A stretch of 33,893 bases of DNA from a bacterium. GTDB lineage: Bacteria > Fidelibacterota > UBA2242. The stretch covers positions 1 through 33,893 of the forward strand of contig JAHIOG010000495.1 in the NCBI GenBank assembly GCA_018895675.1, in the 5' to 3' direction. Below the pieces are notes generated by a model. That model did not search any database. It had not been told where the DNA came from and saw only the letters and a list, made by a program, of their open reading frames with translations. The translations under genes and the position numbers were made by a program. Positions 5,182 to 19,964 of this stretch are shown here, piece by piece; the stretch's first letter is position 1; each line of letters begins with the position of its first letter.

Positions 5182-8100
5182 ATGGCTAAAAAACATTCCG
5201 GTGCTGAAACATCTCAGATTGAAGAGAAAGTAAAGAAACTCAAAAAGGCGAAAACAAAGGAGGCATTCCGGGAAAGTGAGGAAAAATTCCATTTACTTTT
5301 AGAATCCAGCGACGATCCTATCTACCTTGTAGACAAGGAACTAAAGTATCTTTACGCTAATAAGAAACTTCTATCAAGATATGGAAAATCCTTAAGCGAA
5401 GTAATAGGACTAACTTATGCAAATTTTCACTCACCTGAAGCAACGGTGCTATTTTCCAATAGAGTAAAGAAAGTCCTCAAATCAGGCAAACCGCTCGCTT
5501 ACGAATATAAAAGTCAGAGGGATAGGAAGGATTTCCTGCGAACACTAAATCCGTTCATAAACTGGAGTACCGGGGAGATAACAGCCATAACAGTCATTTC
5601 AAAAGATATCAGCAAACAGAAACAGACCGAAAGAGCGCTGGAAAAAAGCGAAGAAAAACTCAGAAATTTCATAGACTCCAGCACAGTAGGTATATGGTGT
5701 TTCAGATTGGAAACGCCGGCAGATATTATACTTCCAAAAGAGAAAATGCTCAAAGATTTTTTCAAAAGCGTCTGCACAGAATGCAATGATGTCTACGCAG
5801 TGATGATGGGCGCGACAAAAGATGAGATTTTGGGTACTGTACTATATGAAGTTATGCCTGATACAGAAGAAAACAGAGCTTATCTTGAAGCTTTTATTAA
5901 CAATAACTTCCAGATTTCAGGTGGAATTTCCCATGAGATTGGCAAAAATGGGTTAGAAAAATACTTCTCCAACTCAATGGTGGGAACTATAAAAAACGGA
6001 AAACTTGTCGAAGCCTGGGGTACTCAAACCGATATAACCGAACTGAAGCAAGCAGAGAAAGACTTGCAGTTTCTCAGCTCCATAAGCGAACAGGCAAAAG
6101 ATTCCATAATTGTTACCGACACAGATTTTAACATTACCTACATCAATAAAGCCACGGAAGAGTTATACGGCTACTCCAAAAAAGAACTCCTCGGAAAAAC
6201 TCCCGACATATTAAATGCCAATTCCCATCGAACGCAAATCCAAGAGGATATTTATAAAACCGTTTCATCGGGTAAGACCTGGACAGGGGAACATCTCAAT
6301 CGAAAAAAGGACGGCAGCACCTTTATTTGCGAGTTTAAAATTTCACCATTAAAAGACGTAGACGACAATATTTTAGCTTATATCGCCATTCAACGAGATT
6401 GCACCGGGCGCAAGCAGGCGGAAGAAAAATTACTTTTTGAACAGAAACAACTTCTTTCTATGTTTGATAGTATTGATGAAGTGATCTACGTTGCCGATCC
6501 GGCTACTTACGAACTTATATATTTTAATGAAGCTTTTAAATCGCGCTGGAAAGGAAAGGCGGGCGATAAGTGTTATAAGGTACTTCAAGATCGAACTTCT
6601 CCCTGTCCCTTTTGTACAAACAAAGATATTTTCGGAGAAAATCTGGGGAAAACATATATTTGGGAATTCCAGAACTTAGTTGATAAACATTGGTACCGCT
6701 GCATAGATAAAGCAATAAAATGGCCTGATGAGCGTATGGTGCGCTATGAGATGGCAGTTGATATCACCGAGCGCAAGCGGGCGGAAAAGGAAGTCCGTGA
6801 GAGTGAAGAAAGATACAGAACCCTTTTTAAAGAAACGCCAATCGGGATATTGACATGCGATACTAAAGGGAATATACATAACATTAATAAGACAGCATTA
6901 GAAATTCTTGGCTCGCCATCTGAAGATGCTACAAAACAGATAAATCTTTTAACATTCCACCTTTTGAAAGAAGCTGGAATCTCTGATGATGTAAGACGCT
7001 GCATAGAAGAAGGTTGTATTGTAAGCTCCGAAAAACCCTATACCACGAAGTGGGGAAAATCCCTAATAGTTCAATCAAAAATAACACCTATTACCGATGA
7101 GAAAGGAAAAGTTAATGGAGTATTATTCGTTTTTGATGATATTTCTGAGCGCAAGAGAGCAGAAAACCAAATTATATCCTTAACCAAACAGATTGAACAA
7201 TTCAGCAAAATCTCTGCCGATATGTTAACCATCACAGATGACAAAATACTGTTTAAAACCATCAGTTCTGCCATTGTTGAAATTTCGGATTTTAGCCGGG
7301 TGATGTTCTACACTTTCAAGGAAGATTTTCCATATAGAGATATACTAGGTTCTCACGGTATAGATAAAGAAACTATAGAACGTTTGCAAAAAGTCGGCAT
7401 ATCACAGGAGGAGTTAAAAGAGATTTTTAACAAAGGAATATCCCTGGGAAATCAATCATGCTATGTGCCGCATACTATGAAGCATATCCTTGATCAAAAG
7501 GCTGTGGATAATGGAAAGAAAGAGTATGCTCCCGGCGCAGGTCGATGGCATAATGAAGATAACCTTTTCATCGCTTTAAAAGATGAGGCTGGTGATTTTA
7601 TCGGCATGATTTCGGTGGATGACTCCAAGAGCGGGGATATTCCCACGGATGAAACGGTCAGACCACTGGAAATGTTCGCTAATCACATTTCCCAAATCTT
7701 GCAAAGTAGAAAATTGGAAAAGAAGATACGAGCTTCTGAGGAGCAATATCGCCTGTTAGTTGAAAATGTCAACGATGCAATTGTAATCAGTCAATATGAC
7801 AAATTCATCTTTTTTAATAAGCAATTTACGACAATGTTAAGATACGATTACGATGAATTGCTTATGAAAGATTTTACTGAGGTTCATACCGAAAAGGCTG
7901 TCGAAATATTGATGGAACGCCAGAAAAGACGCAACCTGGGAGAATATGTGCCATCCCGATACGAAACCGTATTTAAGAAAAAAGACGGGACAACAATCGA
8001 CGTCGAAGCTAATGTGACAATCATAGAATACAGAGGCGATAAGGCGACTTTTGCGGTAATCAGAGATATTACAGAGCGAAAGCAAATTGAGAGAGAAGCT

Positions 8101-9266: not shown

Positions 9267-9444
9267 AAAACCAATTTCCGGACGGCGAAGCCGGACTAAA
9301 TTGGTTTTGGTCTCTTCCCAAACATGAAACCCATTTGATCCGGCGACCGCCGGATTGAAAATAGGTTTCTTTAGATCAACAAGCCGGATTAAAAATGGGT
9401 TTTTTTAGGTATTTTTCTAATCAAAAAGCCATTGCTTTACTTTT
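9267..9444. repeat. REP-like composite repeat, copy A (two long imperfect palindromes; overlaps the 3' end of the RAYT gene)
   Basis: Hairpin 1 at 9267-9308: AAAACCAATTT-CCGGACGGCGAAGCCGGAC-TAAATTGGTTTT. Hairpin 2 at 9326-9369: GAAACCCATTTGATCCGGCG-AC-CGCCGGATTGAAAATAGGTTTC. The unit recurs at 10013-10155. Extra half-sites AAAACCAATT(T)CCG occur at 9220 and 9998. Confidence 0.75.
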
Positions 9445-9983
9445 TTATATTCATCTATACCATCGTTTACAAAATCCGCGTATTCATCTAGGCGTCTAAA
9501 ATATGTGCCGTAAAGACTAACCTGAAAATCAGCCTGACTCTGACTTATCACATTTCCATAATTTGAAAATTCCCATTCCTCCGGTTTATTGACCAATTTT
9601 GCCTTGACAGGATTAAGATGGATATATTTACATAAATATATTGCATAGTTTTCGTCATCGACTAAAATACTTTTAAAGGGTCCTTCAAAAACATGTCCGC
9701 TTTGATAGTATTTACGGTTAAAATATTTTGCGTAGGCCAATTGTAATCTCTGAAAATATTTGGATATCTCATCATCAGATTTCGTTTTTATATAGAAATG
9801 AAAGTGATTAGGCATGAGACAGTACGCCGGAATCCAAAACTTTTCCTCAATCTCAAGTTCTTGTGCTCTGTTTATAACCCATTTATAATCGGAAAGATTT
9901 CTAAACAGGGTCATGTGATTATTCCCACGATTAAACACATGTATGAGTGAATTTTTAATAAAGTTCAGATAACGATAAGGCAT
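9417..9983 (-). CDS. REP-associated tyrosine transposase (RAYT) / IS200-like HUH Y1 transposase
   Basis: 188 aa with the HUH motif (PNHFHFYIKT) and the catalytic Tyr helix (YIHLNPVKAKLV) typical of COG1943/RAYT proteins. It is flanked on both sides by REP-like palindromes. Confidence 0.8.
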   Translation of the reverse strand: MPYRYLNFIKNSLIHVFNRGNNHMTLFRNLSDYKWVINRAQELEIEEKFWIPAYCLMPNHFHFYIKTKSDDEISKYFQRLQLAYAKYFNRKYYQSGHVFEGPFKSILVDDENYAIYLCKYIHLNPVKAKLVNKPEEWEFSNYGNVISQSQADFQVSLYGTYFRRLDEYADFVNDGIDEYKKVKQWLFD

Positions 9984-10214: not shown

Positions 10215-10886
10215 TTAAAAAGGCGGAACATTTGTTATTGTTTCAAAATACTCTGCCGCCGCTTTATGCTTTGGATTAAGTTTTAATACTTTTTTAAATA
10301 AATCCAATGCCTTATCAATATTATATTTCCGCATATGGCAAATTCCCAAATGAAAAGAAGCTGAAACGTGTTCCGGATTTTCTTCAAGCAAGAGATCGAG
10401 ATTTTCGATTGCCTCATTATATTCACCTCTTGCCATACTTGCAATTGCTAAATGGTAATTTATGATGGATGTTTCCGGAGTATTCTTTAACAATTTTTTA
10501 TAACATTCAATACTTTTATCTTCTCTTCCCTTATGATAATAACATAAACCCATCCAACTATACGCCATATATAATTCTGTCTTTTCCTTATCAATTCTTT
10601 TAAAAATTTCGAGAGCTTTATTAAATTGAGCAGAGCGATAATGTGAAATACCCAACCTATAGAGAGCAAAACAATAATTCGGTTCCAATTCTACAACTTT
10701 TTGATATGCTTTAATTGAATCCTGCATACCACCAAGTATATAATGTAAATTGCCTAGATTCATTAATGCCGGAATGTAATCCGTTTTAATCTCCAATATT
10801 TCATAATATTGTCTTATTGCTTCGCTTAGTTTACCTTCAAATTTATATATTTCAGCCTTCTCCATAAGTTCGTTTATTTTTTCCAT
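10215..10886 (-). CDS. tetratricopeptide (TPR) repeat protein
   Basis: 223 aa made of about six 34-residue repeats with the W/L-G-Y-A-F-A-P pattern (for example AIRQYYEILEIKTDYIPALMNLGNLHY, AYQKVVELEPNYCFALYRLGISHY). Confidence 0.8.
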   Translation of the reverse strand: MEKINELMEKAEIYKFEGKLSEAIRQYYEILEIKTDYIPALMNLGNLHYILGGMQDSIKAYQKVVELEPNYCFALYRLGISHYRSAQFNKALEIFKRIDKEKTELYMAYSWMGLCYYHKGREDKSIECYKKLLKNTPETSIINYHLAIASMARGEYNEAIENLDLLLEENPEHVSASFHLGICHMRKYNIDKALDLFKKVLKLNPKHKAAAEYFETITNVPPF

Positions 10887-10900
10887 TATTTAATCCCCGA

Positions 10901-12247
10901 TTACATATTTTCTATTATTTTTTTACCAAATTCAGAAGTTTTGAGTTTAGTCGCCCCTTTCATCTGACGTTCCAAATCATAAGTAACTGTTTTATTAGAA
11001 ATAGTTTTTTCTAAAGCTAATTCAATCAAATCTGCTGCTTCATTCCATCCCAAATGTTGAAGCATCATAACACCAGAAAGAATTAAAGAACTTGGATTCA
11101 CGATATCCATTCCGGTATATTTTGGAGCCGTACCATGAGTTGCTTCAAAAAGAGCCATTTCATCACCAATGTTTGCACCTGGAGCAAGTCCGAGTCCACC
11201 AACCTGGGCCGCACAAGCATCGGAAAGATAATCTCCATTCAGATTTGGTGTGGCAAACACACTATATTCTTCAGGACGGAGCAACACTTGCTGAAATGTC
11301 TGGTCGGCAATTCGATCATTAATTAAAATTTTCCCTTGAGGCATCTTTCCGTTATGTTCATCCCACAATTCCTGTTCTGTGATGATTTCCTCTCTGTATT
11401 CACTTATCGCAAGTTCATATCCCCAATCACGAAATGCTCCTTCGGTAAATTTCATTATATTACCCTTATGAACCAAAGTTACGCTAGGTTTATTCTTTTG
11501 AATCGCATAATCTATCGCTTTTCGTATTAATCGCTTTGTGCAGGTTACAGATATTGGTTTTATCCCAATACCACTGTCCCTCCGAATATCTTTATTCAAA
11601 TTATCCTTTAAAAATTCAATTAACTTTATTGCATCTTCCGAATCCATTTGAAATTCGATACCCGCATAAACGTCCTCAGTATTTTCTCTGAATATTATAA
11701 CATCTAACTTTTCAGGCGCTTTTACTGGAGTAGGAACGCCTTGATACCATCTCACCGGACGGACACAAGCATAAAGATCTAATTTTTGACGTAATCCGAC
11801 ATTCAATGAGCGAAATCCTGGCGTAATAAATTTTGAACCACATTTTATACATTTCTCCGGGCGTTTTCCATTGATTCCGTCTTGTTCTTTGGAACATTCT
11901 AAACAGACATAATCGAATTTTCCAACTGGTGTTGTCAAAGGTCCTTTAATAGCGACTTTGTACTCCTTAATCGCTTTTAAAGTATCTTCCGGCAAAATAT
12001 CATCGTTACCATATTTCTTTAAAGCGGACAATCCGGCATGAATTTTAAACCATTCTATGCTTTTTGCCCCACTATAGGCCTTCTTTACAGCAGAATCGAT
12101 GACACTTTTTGTTGCTTTCCATATATCCGGACCAATTCCATCTCCCTCAATAAAAGGAATGATTGGATTATCAGGAACAGATATTTTACCATTTTTAAAC
12201 TCAATTTTTTTTCCAAGTTCCGGTTTTTTTAATAGTTTGTATTCCAT
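10901..12247 (-). CDS. icd: NADP-dependent isocitrate dehydrogenase (prokaryotic homodimeric type) with a Cys4 insertion
   Basis: Colinear with E. coli Icd over its length: [109 protein letters not shown] 34-aa insertion lies between PVG and FRSLNV. Confidence 0.95.
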
Positions 12248-12341: not shown

Positions 12342-13640
12342 CTATTTAACCTGTTCTAATAACCAGTCGGTTGAAATAGATTTAGGTCTTTCAATTGAAA
12401 ATCCCAATGCTCGTGACCATACCAATTGTGTAAGAATACCAATAGCTCTTGATACTCCAAAAAGTACAGTATAAAAATCGTATTCTGTAACACCATAATA
12501 GACCTGTAAACATCCGGAATGGGCGTCCACATTTGGCCAGGGATTCATTGCTTTACCATGTTTTTTCAAAATATCCGGTGTAACTTCATAAAGTAAACTA
12601 ACAACCTGAAAAATTTCGTCATCCGGTAGATGTTCTAATGCAAATTCACGTTGGGCTTTGTACCTTGGATCAGTTGCTCGTAATACTGCATGTCCATATC
12701 CGGGAATTACCTGACCACTGTTGAGAGTATCCCATAGAAATTTTGTAAGTTGTTCTTTAGTCGGAACACCACCACCTAGTTTTTCCTTTACATTCATAAT
12801 CCAACGAAGGACTTCCTGATTTGCTAATCCATGTAATGGCCCGGCAAGTCCATCTATGCCTGCTGAAAGTGAGTAATATGCATCCGACAATGCTGAACCA
12901 ACCAGATGTGAAGTATGAGCACTGACATTTCCGCTCTCATGGTCACTATGAAGAACAAGATAAAGTCTCATCAATTCTTTGTATTCCGGATTTTCCACAC
13001 CCATCATATAGGCGAAATTCGCTCCCCAATCCAATTTTGGATCTGCTTTAATATGCTTGTTGTTCTTATATGTCTTGCGATAAATATAAGAGGCCATAGA
13101 TGGTAATTTTGCCAATAAATTCATGATATCTTCATACATTGGATCCCATAAATCGTACTTCGATATTCCTTCTCGATATTTTTCAGAGAAGATTGAATCT
13201 TTCTGAAGTGCAAGAATTCCCCCGGAAAACTGTGTCATAGGATGCATATCGGTGGGATAAGAATCCAATATTTTTACCAAATAATCCGGTAATTTTAAAC
13301 GTTGTTGCCATTCTTCTGTGATTTCTTTTACATCATTTTCGGAAGGTAACTCTCCGACTAATAGCAAATAAAAAAGACCTTCGGGAAGTGGCTGCTTCCC
13401 ACCCGGTGCTTTGGGTAACTTTTCACACAGTTCTGGAATAGTATAACCTCTAAAACGGATACCTTCCATCGGATCGAGGTTTGAGGTATCACAAACAAGA
13501 CATTTTACTCCTCTTATTCCACCTAGCGCTTGCTTGATTGTTACCTCTGAAATGACATGATTTCCATGTTCCTTAATCAAAGTTTTGACTCGATCACGCA
13601 TTGGATCGATTTTCGTTTCGAATTTTTTCTTTAAGGTCAT
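12342..13640 (-). CDS. gltA: citrate synthase (eukaryotic-like type)
   Basis: 432 aa with LVLHSDHE.GNVSAHT and VIPGYGHAVLRATDPRY (catalytic His residues) and the C-terminal D-containing RALG motif. The GYGHAVLR.TDPRY form resembles mitochondrial-type enzymes. Confidence 0.95.
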   Translation of the reverse strand: MTLKKKFETKIDPMRDRVKTLIKEHGNHVISEVTIKQALGGIRGVKCLVCDTSNLDPMEGIRFRGYTIPELCEKLPKAPGGKQPLPEGLFYLLLVGELPSENDVKEITEEWQQRLKLPDYLVKILDSYPTDMHPMTQFSGGILALQKDSIFSEKYREGISKYDLWDPMYEDIMNLLAKLPSMASYIYRKTYKNNKHIKADPKLDWGANFAYMMGVENPEYKELMRLYLVLHSDHESGNVSAHTSHLVGSALSDAYYSLSAGIDGLAGPLHGLANQEVLRWIMNVKEKLGGGVPTKEQLTKFLWDTLNSGQVIPGYGHAVLRATDPRYKAQREFALEHLPDDEIFQVVSLLYEVTPDILKKHGKAMNPWPNVDAHSGCLQVYYGVTEYDFYTVLFGVSRAIGILTQLVWSRALGFSIERPKSISTDWLLEQVK

Positions 13641-13713: not shown

Positions 13714-15651
13714 CTATCTTTTTCTTTTAATGTAAGACAATAAACCACCTAAATTGATAATTTCAATATCTCTTTGAGACAATGTGTATCTTAACTGAAT
13801 TTTCTGACCTTTTGTCTTATTATTGACAGTAATTGGTTCATTTGCTTCCAAAGAATTAATTATATTTTCTAATTCTAATATATCTTTTTGTTCTAGATTT
13901 TCATAATCATCTTCATTCGTAAATTCTAATGGCAAAATCCCAAAGTTAATTAGATTGGAATGATGAATTCTCTCGATAGATTTAGCAATTACTGCTTTTA
14001 CACCCAGATATGCAGGACAAATTGCCGCATGTTCTCGTGATGATCCTTGCCCATAACTCAGACCCGCTACAATTATGTTTGCCTTCTGAACTTTTTTATT
14101 TTTCAAACAACGTTCAGGGAATGTGGGATCAACCGGTTCAAATACAAATTCAGAATATTTGGGAATATTTGAGCGATATTTCAAGCGTGCGCCAGCCGGC
14201 ATTATATGGTCAGTCGTAATTATATCACCGACTTTAAGCATTACTTCGCCATTTATATTTTGCACAAGTGGTTCTCCTTTAGGAGGATTACCAATATTCG
14301 GACCTCGATAAATTTCTACTTTTTTATCAGTTTTTTTCGGAGGAATGACCATACTGTCATCAATAAAAAATCTGTCAATTTTTGGAATTTCTGGCGGCTC
14401 CTCCCCTAATTCTCTTGGATCCGTAATAATTCCGGTTATTGCACAAGCGGCGGCTGTTTCCGGGCTGGCAAGATAGACATTCGCAGAATTTGTTCCTGAG
14501 CGTCCCTTGAAATTACGATTGTTCGTTCGAATCGAAATGCCATTTGTAGAGGGCGCAAAACCATTACCGATACAAAATCCGCAAGCAGATTCCATAATTC
14601 GGGCACCAAAATCGACTAAATCGGTCAATGCACCATTTTCAGTTATCATCCGTAAAACCTGTTTGGAGCCGGGTGCTACCGCAAAGCTGATATTTCGAGG
14701 CAATTTCTTTCCTTTAACCATTTTAGCGACTGTCATTAAATCTTTAAAAGAAGAATTCGTGCAACTACCTACACATACTTGATCGACTTTAAGTCCTGCT
14801 AAATCCTTTACTAAACTAACATTACCCGGACTGTGCGGTGTTGCAAGTCTTGGTTCGAGAGTGCTTAAATCTATATCGATAATTCTGTCGTATTCAGCGT
14901 CAGGATCCGCTTTCAGTTCTATCCATCCACCCTCTCGTTCCTGAGCTTTTAGAAAAGAATACGTTATTTCATCACTAGGAAATATTGAAGATGTAACACC
15001 TAACTCTGCTCCCATATTAGTAATTGTAGCTCTTTCAGGAACACTAAGAGTTTTTACTCCCGGACCGCCATATTCCACAACCCAAGCTACATTTCCTTTT
15101 GTTGTTAATAGTTCAAGGACATAAAGGATAATATCTTTGGCAGTTATCCATTTTGATAGTTTTTTTGTAAGGTTTATTTTCAAAACTTTGGGATAGGTAA
15201 TGTAAAAAGGTAGTCCCGCTAAAGCACAAGCGACATCCAATCCACCTGCTCCAATCGCAAGCATTCCAATTCCTCCGCCGGTTGGTGTATGACTATCGGA
15301 ACCGAGTAAGGTTTTCCCTGGAAGCCCAAACCTTTCCAGGTGAACCTGATGACATATACCATTTCCTGCTCTTGAATAATAAATACCATATTTTTCTGCA
15401 ATCGTTTGTAAATATTTGTGGTCGTCAGCATTTTCAAAACCCATTTGGCCAGTATTGTGATCAACATAACTCACTGAAATTTCAGTTTTAATTTCCCTAA
15501 TATCCATTGCTTCAAATTCCAGATATACCATTGTTCCAGTTGCGTCTTGGGTCAGGGTCTGATCAATTTTTACTCCTACAATTTCACTGGCTTTCATCTG
15601 TCCTTCCAGCAAGTGTGATTTAATAATTTTCTGGATAATATTAAAACCCAT
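13714..15651 (-). CDS. aconitate hydratase (short ~645-aa 'Aquifex-type' aconitase)
   Basis: Fe-S ligand motifs (VGSCTNSS, ESACGFCIGNG), substrate motifs (GSDSHT, NRNFKGR) and a C-terminal swivel domain (GLSYGQGSSREHAA). Confidence 0.9.
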   Translation of the reverse strand: MGFNIIQKIIKSHLLEGQMKASEIVGVKIDQTLTQDATGTMVYLEFEAMDIREIKTEISVSYVDHNTGQMGFENADDHKYLQTIAEKYGIYYSRAGNGICHQVHLERFGLPGKTLLGSDSHTPTGGGIGMLAIGAGGLDVACALAGLPFYITYPKVLKINLTKKLSKWITAKDIILYVLELLTTKGNVAWVVEYGGPGVKTLSVPERATITNMGAELGVTSSIFPSDEITYSFLKAQEREGGWIELKADPDAEYDRIIDIDLSTLEPRLATPHSPGNVSLVKDLAGLKVDQVCVGSCTNSSFKDLMTVAKMVKGKKLPRNISFAVAPGSKQVLRMITENGALTDLVDFGARIMESACGFCIGNGFAPSTNGISIRTNNRNFKGRSGTNSANVYLASPETAAACAITGIITDPRELGEEPPEIPKIDRFFIDDSMVIPPKKTDKKVEIYRGPNIGNPPKGEPLVQNINGEVMLKVGDIITTDHIMPAGARLKYRSNIPKYSEFVFEPVDPTFPERCLKNKKVQKANIIVAGLSYGQGSSREHAAICPAYLGVKAVIAKSIERIHHSNLINFGILPLEFTNEDDYENLEQKDILELENIINSLEANEPITVNNKTKGQKIQLRYTLSQRDIEIINLGGLLSYIKRKR

Positions 15652-18248: not shown

Positions 18249-19964
18249 TTACAGAGCATTTACCAATTTTCCAAGCAGCGCTGGTTTCGATAATAGATCC
18301 GATGACTTCAAAAACTCACAGCGTTGCTCAAAACGATCTTTTATTAATGCTATATATCCTTCTGGATTGGTGCGCTTATATGGATTATATTTTTCATAAT
18401 AACCTGGAAGTAACTTATCGATAGATTCTTTTGTAGGAATCATCGCTCCAGGTAATAATTTCCAATCTTCCCACTCAATTTGGTCCATCAAAATACCAGT
18501 GTGAATCGTAAGCGAAGTCTGGAGTTCAATATTTTCCAAATGCTCATCAGAGGATTTCCAGTATCCAGATGAATTGAAAGTGTAACACTCTGCACCCGTT
18601 TCTAACACTTTTAGAAATGCCTCGACATCTTTATAAAGTTCATAAACTCTAAATGGATTTGCAAATGGTTCAAAAACCAATTTTGCTAATTCCTCCTCTG
18701 TTACATTTTCGGCTCTGCTTCTTTTTGTAATTAATGCCGCTCCCATCGCAACAGCAAGATATTTGTCTTTATATTTTAGTGCAGGCGGTAAAATTGTATC
18801 TTTCATGAGCCAGACCAGTGCTTTAGGAAAACTACACCTATTTACCCATTTTCCAAGAAGGTCGCGGTCAAAAAGAGCCCGTCCATTTGCCTGACGAATA
18901 TCACGTCCGAGGGGAAGTAACTTTCCATCGTTTTTTATCAAAGCGTGATTCATAACCGCAAGACAATACTCCCAATCCGGATGGTCTGTATTTCGACTAT
19001 CTGTTTTATCAAAGAGCGAAGGTTCCCAAACGCGACAAACCTTTCCTTCTGTGTCAATCTGAAATGCATCATCGTGAAGCGTCGCTTTCTTAAAACCTTT
19101 AGGTAATGTACCTCCATTATCATGTGAATTTGTATGAGAAGACTTTCCAGTTCCCGAAAGTCCAAAAAATGCTATAGATTTCTTTCCTAAAACTCTATGT
19201 TCTTTATTATCACATTCAGAAAAATCAATCTCTTTAATGCCGCCATGACAAGCAGCCATTCCCAATCTCATACCGGAAGACCACGCAAGAGTCAGGGTCC
19301 CTTTTTTACGTTCACCAAAATAGCGCATCCCCAAATTGAAAATCACATTATGTTTTTCGTCAACTAAGGCAAGTTGCGGCGCACCAACATTATGATAATA
19401 TGGGTCATCACATGTCCATTCGTTAAATGCCACAATTATAATATCCTGAATTGGCAGAACTTTGCTGTTTTCATATTCTTCTGTCAATTCGATTGGGTTA
19501 AAATTTGACAACCAGTTAAACACATTACTTGCATCGTTTGTTGATGTAACGAAAGTTGCCTTTATCATTAAATCGGGATCCAATCCTATCACTGCTTCTG
19601 CTTTAATAAGGTCATAATGTTCAAGCTGATATATTGCTTCTCTAATATCACCTTCAACCTTTTTCTTATCTGCTGCAGGAATCCGATTATAAAATCTCCT
19701 CGCTTTTGCAGTTCTACCAATAATTTTACCATGACAATCATTTAGGACCTTTGCTCCTTTTGGCAGTCCAAAAAGCGCAGCTGTCCGAGGATATATTTCT
19801 AAGTCTGTTTCTGATACACCAGCTTGGTTTTTTGCCATTTCATAAGCTTCAGCAATGTTTATCTTTCGCACTTTTGGATTTAAAAGTACTGCTTCAGCAA
19901 TTGCTCGAAGCGGAGACATTTCTGTTAAATCTTTGTAATACTTATCACTTGGTAAACTCGACAT
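18249..19964 (-). CDS. pckA: phosphoenolpyruvate carboxykinase, divergent ATP-type
   Basis: 571 aa with a kinase-1a P-loop FFGLSGTGKSS, a YFGERKKG block (canonical YAGEMKKG) and an LHDDAF block (canonical IGDDEH). Order and spacing fit ATP-PEPCK, but several signature residues differ. Confidence 0.75.
   Translation of the reverse strand: MSSLPSDKYYKDLTEMSPLRAIAEAVLLNPKVRKINIAEAYEMAKNQAGVSETDLEIYPRTAALFGLPKGAKVLNDCHGKIIGRTAKARRFYNRIPAADKKKVEGDIREAIYQLEHYDLIKAEAVIGLDPDLMIKATFVTSTNDASNVFNWLSNFNPIELTEEYENSKVLPIQDIIIVAFNEWTCDDPYYHNVGAPQLALVDEKHNVIFNLGMRYFGERKKGTLTLAWSSGMRLGMAACHGGIKEIDFSECDNKEHRVLGKKSIAFFGLSGTGKSSHTNSHDNGGTLPKGFKKATLHDDAFQIDTEGKVCRVWEPSLFDKTDSRNTDHPDWEYCLAVMNHALIKNDGKLLPLGRDIRQANGRALFDRDLLGKWVNRCSFPKALVWLMKDTILPPALKYKDKYLAVAMGAALITKRSRAENVTEEELAKLVFEPFANPFRVYELYKDVEAFLKVLETGAECYTFNSSGYWKSSDEHLENIELQTSLTIHTGILMDQIEWEDWKLLPGAMIPTKESIDKLLPGYYEKYNPYKRTNPEGYIALIKDRFEQRCEFLKSSDLLSKPALLGKLVNAL

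Follow-up and report, generated by a model that had tools for sequence, protein, structure and literature searches.

The phosphorylation loop of isocitrate dehydrogenase (IDH, encoded by icd) is the founding example of bacterial enzyme regulation by phosphorylation and a well-studied induced-fit element. The base of this loop touches the nicotinamide ribose and the isocitrate gamma-carboxylate, and residues 101-108 of apo S. tokodaii IDH, which form the tip of the loop, are disordered (PMC6313988). The loop is also among the regions that vary between IDH subfamilies, and a metal-binding form is not described there (PMC3521221). The present analysis concerns the icd gene on a 33,893-nucleotide stretch of DNA, referred to throughout as the window (contig JAHIOG010000495.1 of assembly GCA_018895675.1, positions 1 to 33,893 of the forward strand), from an uncultured marine anaerobe of the GTDB lineage Fidelibacterota, UBA2242. 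Located at 10901..12247 on the minus strand, icd encodes a 448-amino-acid isocitrate dehydrogenase dependent on nicotinamide adenine dinucleotide phosphate (NADP) and belonging to subfamily I, the homodimeric type. At the tip of its phosphorylation loop lies a 34-residue, zinc-ribbon-like insert with four cysteines (amino acids 110-143; 11819..11920, minus strand), recognized from alignments with structures in the PDB, invariant cysteines, AlphaFold2 and Foldseek models, and the ratio of nonsynonymous to synonymous substitution rates (dN/dS). Collectively, these lines of evidence make it very probable that the insert genuinely exists and functions as a Cys4 metal module, and that the IDH carrying it is active.

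The boundaries of the insert are set by comparison with known structures. In a phmmer search of all PDB chains, every solved subfamily-I IDH aligns with the window protein in two pieces, query residues 1-109 and 144-448, whose counterparts in E. coli Icd are residues 7-108 and 110-416. Since the solved enzymes split at query 109/144, the 34 residues stand for a single glycine of the TTPVG-G-GIRSLNV tip, and where canonical Icd reads GGG the window Icd carries the insert. The initial annotation had proposed an insertion of about 34 residues with CxxC-X14-CxxC cysteine spacing at 11819-11920, just before the serine of RSLNV, in a protein otherwise colinear with canonical Icd. Both statements were borne out, as the interval is exactly codons 110-143, three residues before Ser147, and the flanking pieces align as above, pass the TIGR00183 threshold and retain the catalytic residues. 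The remark that this was not known as a described feature of Icd also agrees with what was found: full-text literature searches returned no description of the insert, and it is absent from every solved IDH among the PDB chains searched. Within the insert, knuckle 1 (C115-L-E-C118; 11894..11905) and knuckle 2 (C133-I-K-C136, part of a CxKCGS motif; 11840..11851) both lie on the minus strand and occupy invariant columns, and all four cysteine codons read tgt on the coding strand (11903-05, 11894-96, 11849-51 and 11840-42). The residue at the junction that follows, Gly144 (gga; 11816..11818, minus strand), corresponds to Gly110 in canonical Icd and is an arginine in 137/142 insert-bearing enzymes. 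In locus L006, whose Icd is 98% identical, the same position is also Arg; the single G/A difference may reflect either strain variation or an error in the consensus.

Apart from the insert, the icd product appears from its sequence to be a complete NADP-isocitrate dehydrogenase with all catalytic and NADP-specificity residues. It scores 662.6 bits against TIGR00183, above the curated equivalog threshold of 567.3, and 614.9 against NF005425 (cut-off 490), matches PF00180 (Iso_dh; E=3e-90), and is 55-57% identical to the A. fulgidus and E. coli IDH structures by phmmer against PDB chains. An AlphaFold2 model of the full-length protein, built with 62 relatives in the alignment, reaches a predicted template modelling score (pTM) of 0.90. 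When this model is compared with solved structures by Foldseek, the target-normalised TM-score is 0.94 to the A. fulgidus enzyme (2iv0) and 0.89-0.91 to the B. subtilis and E. coli enzymes, and the large, small and clasp domains of the IDH fold are all present. Residues S113, N115, R119, R129, R153, Y160, K230, D283, D307 and D311 of E. coli Icd are all matched in the window protein, and the equivalent S147, N149, R153, R163, R187, Y194, K261, D315, D339 and D343 are invariant among 62 insert-bearing sequences. Of the sites that confer NADP specificity (E. coli K344, Y345, V351, Y391 and R395), K376, Y423 and R427 are likewise invariant in the insert-bearing relatives while Y377 and V383 are kept in at least 90%. 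The source genome, 3.58 Mb in 675 contigs and 90% complete, encodes a single Icd of the TIGR00183 type and three further paralogues of the Iso_dh family.

The serine next to the insert had been identified beforehand with the AceK phosphorylation site of E. coli, a claim that holds for the residue and not for the regulator. Ser147 (11807..11809, minus strand) occupies an invariant column and aligns with E. coli Ser113, the ligand of the isocitrate gamma-carboxylate and target of AceK. However, neither AceK (PF06315) nor isocitrate lyase (PF00463) was found in the 90% complete source genome, while the E. coli controls were matched. Regulation of the AceK type was rejected for this genome on that ground, and the link of the insert to AceK is only positional. 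A bulky ribbon at the loop tip would probably change access to the serine.

Conservation of the insert is extensive. Aligning Icd sequences had been suggested as a way to trace the lineages that carry it, and in a collection of 5.8 billion proteins the best 120 hits all have a spacer of 36-37 residues in which the four cysteines are invariant. The spacer reads [FY]-x-[YF]-V-C-[LM]-x-C-x-x-E-Q...R-P-x-x-C-x-K-C-G-S-x-[FYW]-[VI]-T-P-R-F and is followed by RSLNV. Among approximately 140 insert-bearing sequences, the four cysteines, P130 and F145 never vary, and K135 and R144 seldom do. Mean column identity is 75% in the insert and 79% over the whole protein, and across 34 usable pairs the median dN/dS is 0.10 for the insert versus 0.08 for 164 flanking codons; purifying selection thus acts on the insert as strongly as on the rest of the enzyme. 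The length of the loop between the knuckles varies, with X14, X15, X10 and X9 all represented. The short forms are CxxC-X10-CxxC, found in two Elusimicrobiota genomes, and CxxC-X9-CxxC, found in one divergent enzyme, P0125 (52% identical). P0125 is also the sole insert-bearing representative found after clustering at 50% identity, a procedure that merges insert-bearing and insert-less Icds. Because the short forms shorten only the loop and retain the knuckles, the stalk residues, P130, K135, R144 and F145, the ribbon and its stalk, rather than the tip, look like the selected core. A homologue search restricted to the insert returned 44 close relatives, every one an Icd, suggesting that, among those matches, the module is confined to Icd and absent from other host proteins of similar length; the search is limited by its word index and gives no estimate of family size. 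The possibility that the insert is an intein or the remnant of a mobile element was rejected by inference, given its 34-residue length, lack of splicing motifs, preserved frame and purifying selection.

The fold assigned to the insert in the initial annotation, a zinc ribbon, is upheld in part. In the full-length AlphaFold2 model the insert has a predicted local distance difference test score (pLDDT) of 77-92 and is bracketed by short strands at residues 113-115 and 141-143. Folded alone from 46 aligned inserts, it reaches a pLDDT of 92.4 with the terminal strands paired. The top Foldseek matches of the insert model in the PDB are exclusively Cys4 zinc modules, namely those of Rpb12, L40e, the N-terminal zinc finger of MCM, the zinc module of Sir2, reverse gyrase and PriA, with query-normalised TM-scores of 0.6-0.76 and probabilities up to 0.98. 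The associated E-values of 0.1-1 are not significant, which is to be expected of a module of only 36 residues. At the level of sequence, a profile search of the PDB gave weak, single-stretch matches to rubredoxin, S27e, Rpb12 and L40e, and Pfam returned sub-threshold scores of 17.5 bits for Zn_ribbon_8 (cut-off 34.4) and 14.1 for Zn_ribbon_RPAB4 (cut-off 24), such that the insert belongs to no curated family and matches in architecture alone. The models nonetheless point to a probable zinc-ribbon architecture. Homology to C2H2 poly-zinc-finger proteins was considered and rejected, as the top matches in the PDB profile search are sums of the insert motif 'GKRPEKCxKCG' against the repeated linker-knuckle 'TGEKPYKCxECGK'.

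With respect to distribution, a motif scan for the long form that sampled one genome per species identified 52 species-representative genomes, all assembled from metagenomes in different studies. The figure is to be read as a minimum, since the pattern misses variants such as YVCM or CSQEQ. The presence of the insert in 52 independent assemblies rules out an assembly artefact, a concern raised at the outset. By record title, the carriers are Neomarinimicrobiota/Marinimicrobia (Fidelibacterota at NCBI), Cloacimonadota, KSB1, Calditrichota, Elusimicrobiota, Stahlbacteria and 'Armatimonadota', although one 'Armatimonadota' carrier falls in the GTDB phylum of a Cloacimonadota match. The window Icd itself is 98% identical to that of a Neomarinimicrobiota metagenome-assembled genome from 750 m depth in the Black Sea. 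In the phylum of the window, 192/301 genomes encode an Icd of the TIGR00183 type and 8/301 carry the insert; the corresponding figures for the insert in Cloacimonadota and Elusimicrobiota are 12/201 and 7/201. The insert is therefore patchy, occurring in 3-6% of the genomes sampled in three phyla, all of them uncultured. Close relatives with lower-scoring Icds were considered as possible bearers of variant inserts and rejected, for five genomes of the same genus or family (G125, G049, G010, G028 and G037; loci L058-L062) have a canonical Icd with a GGG or GEG tip, only 53-57% identical to the window protein. Since such near relatives possess so different an Icd (~55% identity), the insert-bearing icd acts like a xenologue travelling together with its neighbours, and the cluster of aconitase, citrate synthase, icd and, in places, a TPR gene (acn-gltA-icd(-TPR)) has probably been exchanged horizontally between Marinisomatota and Cloacimonadota. 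In a maximum-likelihood tree computed without the insert columns and including long and short forms, all 50/50 insert-bearing rows lie on one side of a single branch with an SH-aLRT (Shimodaira-Hasegawa-like approximate likelihood ratio test) support of 92, corresponding to one state change. The tree is unrooted. A single origin of the insert is the simplest reading of these sequences, with support that is good but not decisive.

The phosphorylation loop extends between strand 98-101 and helix d, and the insert falls three residues before the substrate-binding serine. The insertion point aligns to residue 105/106 of S. tokodaii IDH, which is within the flexible tip that is disordered in the apo enzyme. 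An indirect clue to the orientation of the ribbon is a second change that accompanies the insert elsewhere in the protein. The position of E. coli Glu72 is occupied by leucine (Leu73 in the window; 12029..12031, minus strand) in 140/142 insert-bearing enzymes, the divergent short forms included; among insert-less enzymes, 39/49 have Glu there and 1/49 has Leu. Position 76 likewise turns hydrophobic in the insert-bearing enzymes. Leu73 and Leu76 sit after strand 65-68, in the loop that follows the neighbouring parallel strand. Because loops from the C-terminal ends of adjacent parallel strands in an alpha/beta domain sit side by side, the hydrophobic stalk of the ribbon (F111, Y113 and L116) could plausibly dock on this loop, with Leu73 as a candidate contact. 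Further clade-specific changes adjoin D283, K344/Y345 and R395, and these are possibly, though not necessarily, connected with the insert.

From these observations a mechanism can be proposed. The glycine tip of the phosphorylation loop (G108-G110 in E. coli) would be replaced by a Cys4 metal ribbon of 33-34 residues, the metal most likely being zinc. The ends of the insert are predicted to pair as a short beta stalk, residues 113-115 with 141-143, and the two CxxC knuckles would clamp one metal ion. The module may then stand out from the large domain where the active-site cleft opens, while packing back on the neighbouring large-domain loop and helix through Leu73 and Leu76. As a rigid, metal-stabilised cap, it could fix the loop whose base (Thr104/Thr105, Ser113 and Asn115 in E. 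coli) holds the NADP ribose and isocitrate, and in doing so shape how the cleft is reached and how it closes, with no part of its own in the chemistry. The enzyme itself would presumably serve the citrate-to-2-oxoglutarate branch encoded by the same cluster. The chances are about even that the insert acts as a structural cap or lid of this kind rather than in regulation. Several points weigh against it. The polar residues E121, Q122, R129, K135 and R144 are more conserved than a purely structural knuckle needs and could reflect contacts with a ligand or partner, and the window protein departs from the conserved Arg144 in having a glycine there. With a module this short, neither the Foldseek E-values (0.1-1) nor the Pfam zinc-ribbon scores (17 bits, with cut-offs of 24-34) reach significance. 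Moreover, the changes near D283, K344/Y345 and R395 hint at altered handling of cofactor or substrate and not at stabilisation alone.

Turning to the genes around icd, two neighbours link the enzyme to central carbon metabolism. Citrate synthase (12342..13640, minus strand; PF00285, E=2e-95) lies upstream in the same gene string and is a neighbour in 19 loci, and aconitase (13714..15651, minus strand; PF00330/PF00694) is the most widely kept neighbour of insert-bearing icd, present in 29 loci from several phyla. Beyond these two, the survey of loci found no universal partner gene of insert-bearing icd. The absence of any other universal neighbour has been taken to argue that the function of the insert is intrinsic to the enzyme. 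Additional neighbours are specific to particular lineages and include Obg, DprA, a glycosyltransferase, succinyl-CoA synthetase, a STAS protein and a protein resembling pyridoxamine-phosphate oxidase (PNPOx). In a subset of Cloacimonadota loci (L012, L019, L021, L022, L026 and L029), a conserved open reading frame (ORF) of approximately 141 amino acids stands between aconitase and icd (ORF -1); judged by eye, it resembles a split-barrel protein of the PNPOx-like type.

A further neighbour is a 223-amino-acid protein encoded 14 nucleotides downstream of icd (10215..10886, minus strand), for which Pfam reports TPR families only. A TPR gene comes next after icd in 17 related loci of a Marinimicrobia/Cloacimonadota sub-clade, mostly at a distance of 12-15 nucleotides, and its product is 223 amino acids long in 16/17 of them. 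The exception, in locus L024, is a homologue of 248 amino acids (7073-7819, plus strand) with a zinc ribbon of its own at the N-terminus, a CxxC-x11-CxxC motif (MNCKNCEKEIQIEFSFCPFCG). Within the phylum of the window, the gene adjoins insert-bearing icd in 5/7 other carriers at 47-97% identity, and TPR matches located away from insert-bearing icd are at most 44% identical in the genomes sampled. The 223-amino-acid protein is accordingly a candidate partner of Icd. In the loci of Elusimicrobiota, KSB1 and Calditrichota, the gene immediately downstream of icd is not a TPR gene but an unrelated one (Obg, DprA or a glycosyltransferase); eight loci from these groups carry a large TPR protein at position -3. 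The short-form enzyme P0125 has a different setting. In loci L063 (1631-4716) and L064 (1116-2198), its gene lies beside a divergently transcribed PP2C phosphatase, and L063 also holds a 658-amino-acid Hanks-type Ser/Thr kinase nearby, a striking setting for an enzyme whose phosphorylation loop is altered. At the edges of the window locus, an IS200-like Y1 transposase similar to RAYT (9417-9983, minus strand) occurs just past the TPR gene, where the string of central-carbon genes ends on its downstream side. Farther off, a divergent phosphoenolpyruvate carboxykinase (PEPCK) is suggested at 18249-19964 (minus strand) by a weak match to PF01293 (E=1e-10, 41 bits).

Four other explanations of the insert deserve consideration alongside the structural cap. 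The insert could be a thiol redox or metal-sensing switch, in which oxidation of a Zn-Cys4 site would release the metal, unfold the ribbon and, through disorder of the loop, turn Icd off or on. Control would then be exerted at the loop that AceK uses in enterobacteria but by a different chemistry. There are precedents in the Zn-Cys4 redox switches of Hsp33 and RsrA and in the cysteine-bearing extensions that gate chloroplast NADP-dependent malate dehydrogenase. The Cys4 site lies just three residues from the substrate-binding serine, AceK was not found in the source genome, and the carriers named in records all come from anoxic or sulfidic settings (Black Sea at 750 m, Guaymas, Zodletone, groundwater and a sulfidic cave), although this distribution may simply mirror the phylogeny of the carriers. 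Structural Cys4 sites are, however, far commoner than switches, and the survey of neighbours found no thioredoxin-like or other redox partner conserved beside icd. A switch is judged unlikely. Its most elaborate version, in which the ribbon gives the phosphorylation loop a gate that responds reversibly to redox state or metal and is possibly read out by the co-transcribed TPR protein, seems quite doubtful. If true, a clade of anaerobes would regulate the isocitrate branch point at the very spot of AceK action through zinc-thiolate chemistry, by means of a convergent, built-in sensor.

Equally doubtful is that the insert is a docking module, whether for the TPR protein, for the kinase and phosphatase pair of the short-form lineage, for a metabolon with aconitase and citrate synthase, or for oligomerisation. 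The constant length and spacing of the TPR gene in most of the 17 loci, its closer similarity where it accompanies insert-bearing icd, the ribbon on the TPR protein of L024 and the company kept by P0125 are all consistent with such a role. Yet none of these neighbours is as old or as widespread as the insert, the adjacent TPR copy is disrupted in one insert-bearing genome, and the loci of Elusimicrobiota, KSB1 and Calditrichota, besides having no TPR gene directly downstream, showed no kinase or phosphatase neighbour that was noticed. A further possibility is that the insert forms an Fe(Cys)4 centre like that of rubredoxin, serving electron transfer or iron sensing. This reading would suit anaerobic hosts, and it draws on the resemblance of CxKCG in knuckle 2 to the CPxCG of rubredoxin and on the appearance of rubredoxin in the PDB profile search (E=0.07). 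It is very improbable given that both the 14-residue spacing and the closest fold matches point to zinc ribbons, the rubredoxin spacing being approximately 29, and that Icd can transfer hydride with no one-electron centre and has no flavin or partner. Finally, a loop tip that is disordered in the apo structure could tolerate insertions, and the insert might on that basis be a neutral leftover on the surface or an artefact of assembly or annotation. This explanation has next to no probability and is effectively refuted by the conservation data: at least 52 independent assemblies, invariant cysteines, the dN/dS of 0.10, persistence in at least six phyla and the change at another site of the protein that goes with it.

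A metal-binding mini-domain at the tip of this loop would define an undescribed structural class of IDH in the little-studied anaerobic phyla Marinisomatota, Cloacimonadota, Elusimicrobiota, KSB1 and Calditrichota. If its role is only structural, as the cap reading has it, a glycine hinge would have been swapped for a metal clamp; if regulatory, it would represent a new way to control flux through the tricarboxylic acid cycle. The insert could in addition provide a useful sequence marker for the horizontally moving cluster of aconitase, citrate synthase and icd.

Several known systems help to place this enzyme. The AceK-regulated Icd of E. coli has the same loop and the same serine as the window Icd and differs in the regulatory setting, AceK and isocitrate lyase not having been found in the source genome. 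Subfamily-I NADP-dependent IDHs in general (A. fulgidus 2iv0; E. coli 1ai2 and 3icd; TIGR00183) have the fold, length, ligand residues and TTPVG and RSLNV flanks in common with the window Icd, but their tip is GGG whereas the clade of the window has 33-34 residues with two CxxC knuckles and a leucine at the position of Glu72. In the ARS-like region (E. coli residues 239-275), for which length classes have been described (PMC3521221), the window Icd aligns without gaps to the A. fulgidus enzyme and looks like the short archaeal type. This same region holds the helical hairpin of B. subtilis IDH and the long segment of cyanobacterial IDH, clade-specific additions near the active-site entrance that alter its accessibility (PMC3521221). 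The window insert resembles these in being clade-specific and near the entrance to the active site. In contrast, they belong to the small domain and have no metal site, whereas the window insert belongs to the phosphorylation loop of the large domain and has a Cys4 motif. Outside the IDH family, the zinc ribbon of Sir2 and the zinc lobe of medium-chain alcohol dehydrogenases are small structural Cys4 modules in the nucleotide-binding domain, beside the cleft of enzymes that use NAD(P). Sir2Af2 is among the Foldseek matches of the insert; however, these modules have no sequence homology to it and are universal in their families instead of clade-specific. A further parallel is the LID of adenylate kinase in Gram-positive bacteria, a mobile lid over the nucleotide site with a structural Cys4 metal site (CxxC...CxxC) that is a metal-free loop in other lineages. 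The likeness to the insert-bearing Icd consists in a Cys4 site confined to a subset of lineages and a metal-free loop otherwise. The two differ in enzyme and fold, and while the lid of adenylate kinase is present in all forms and only its ligands change, in Icd the whole module has been inserted.

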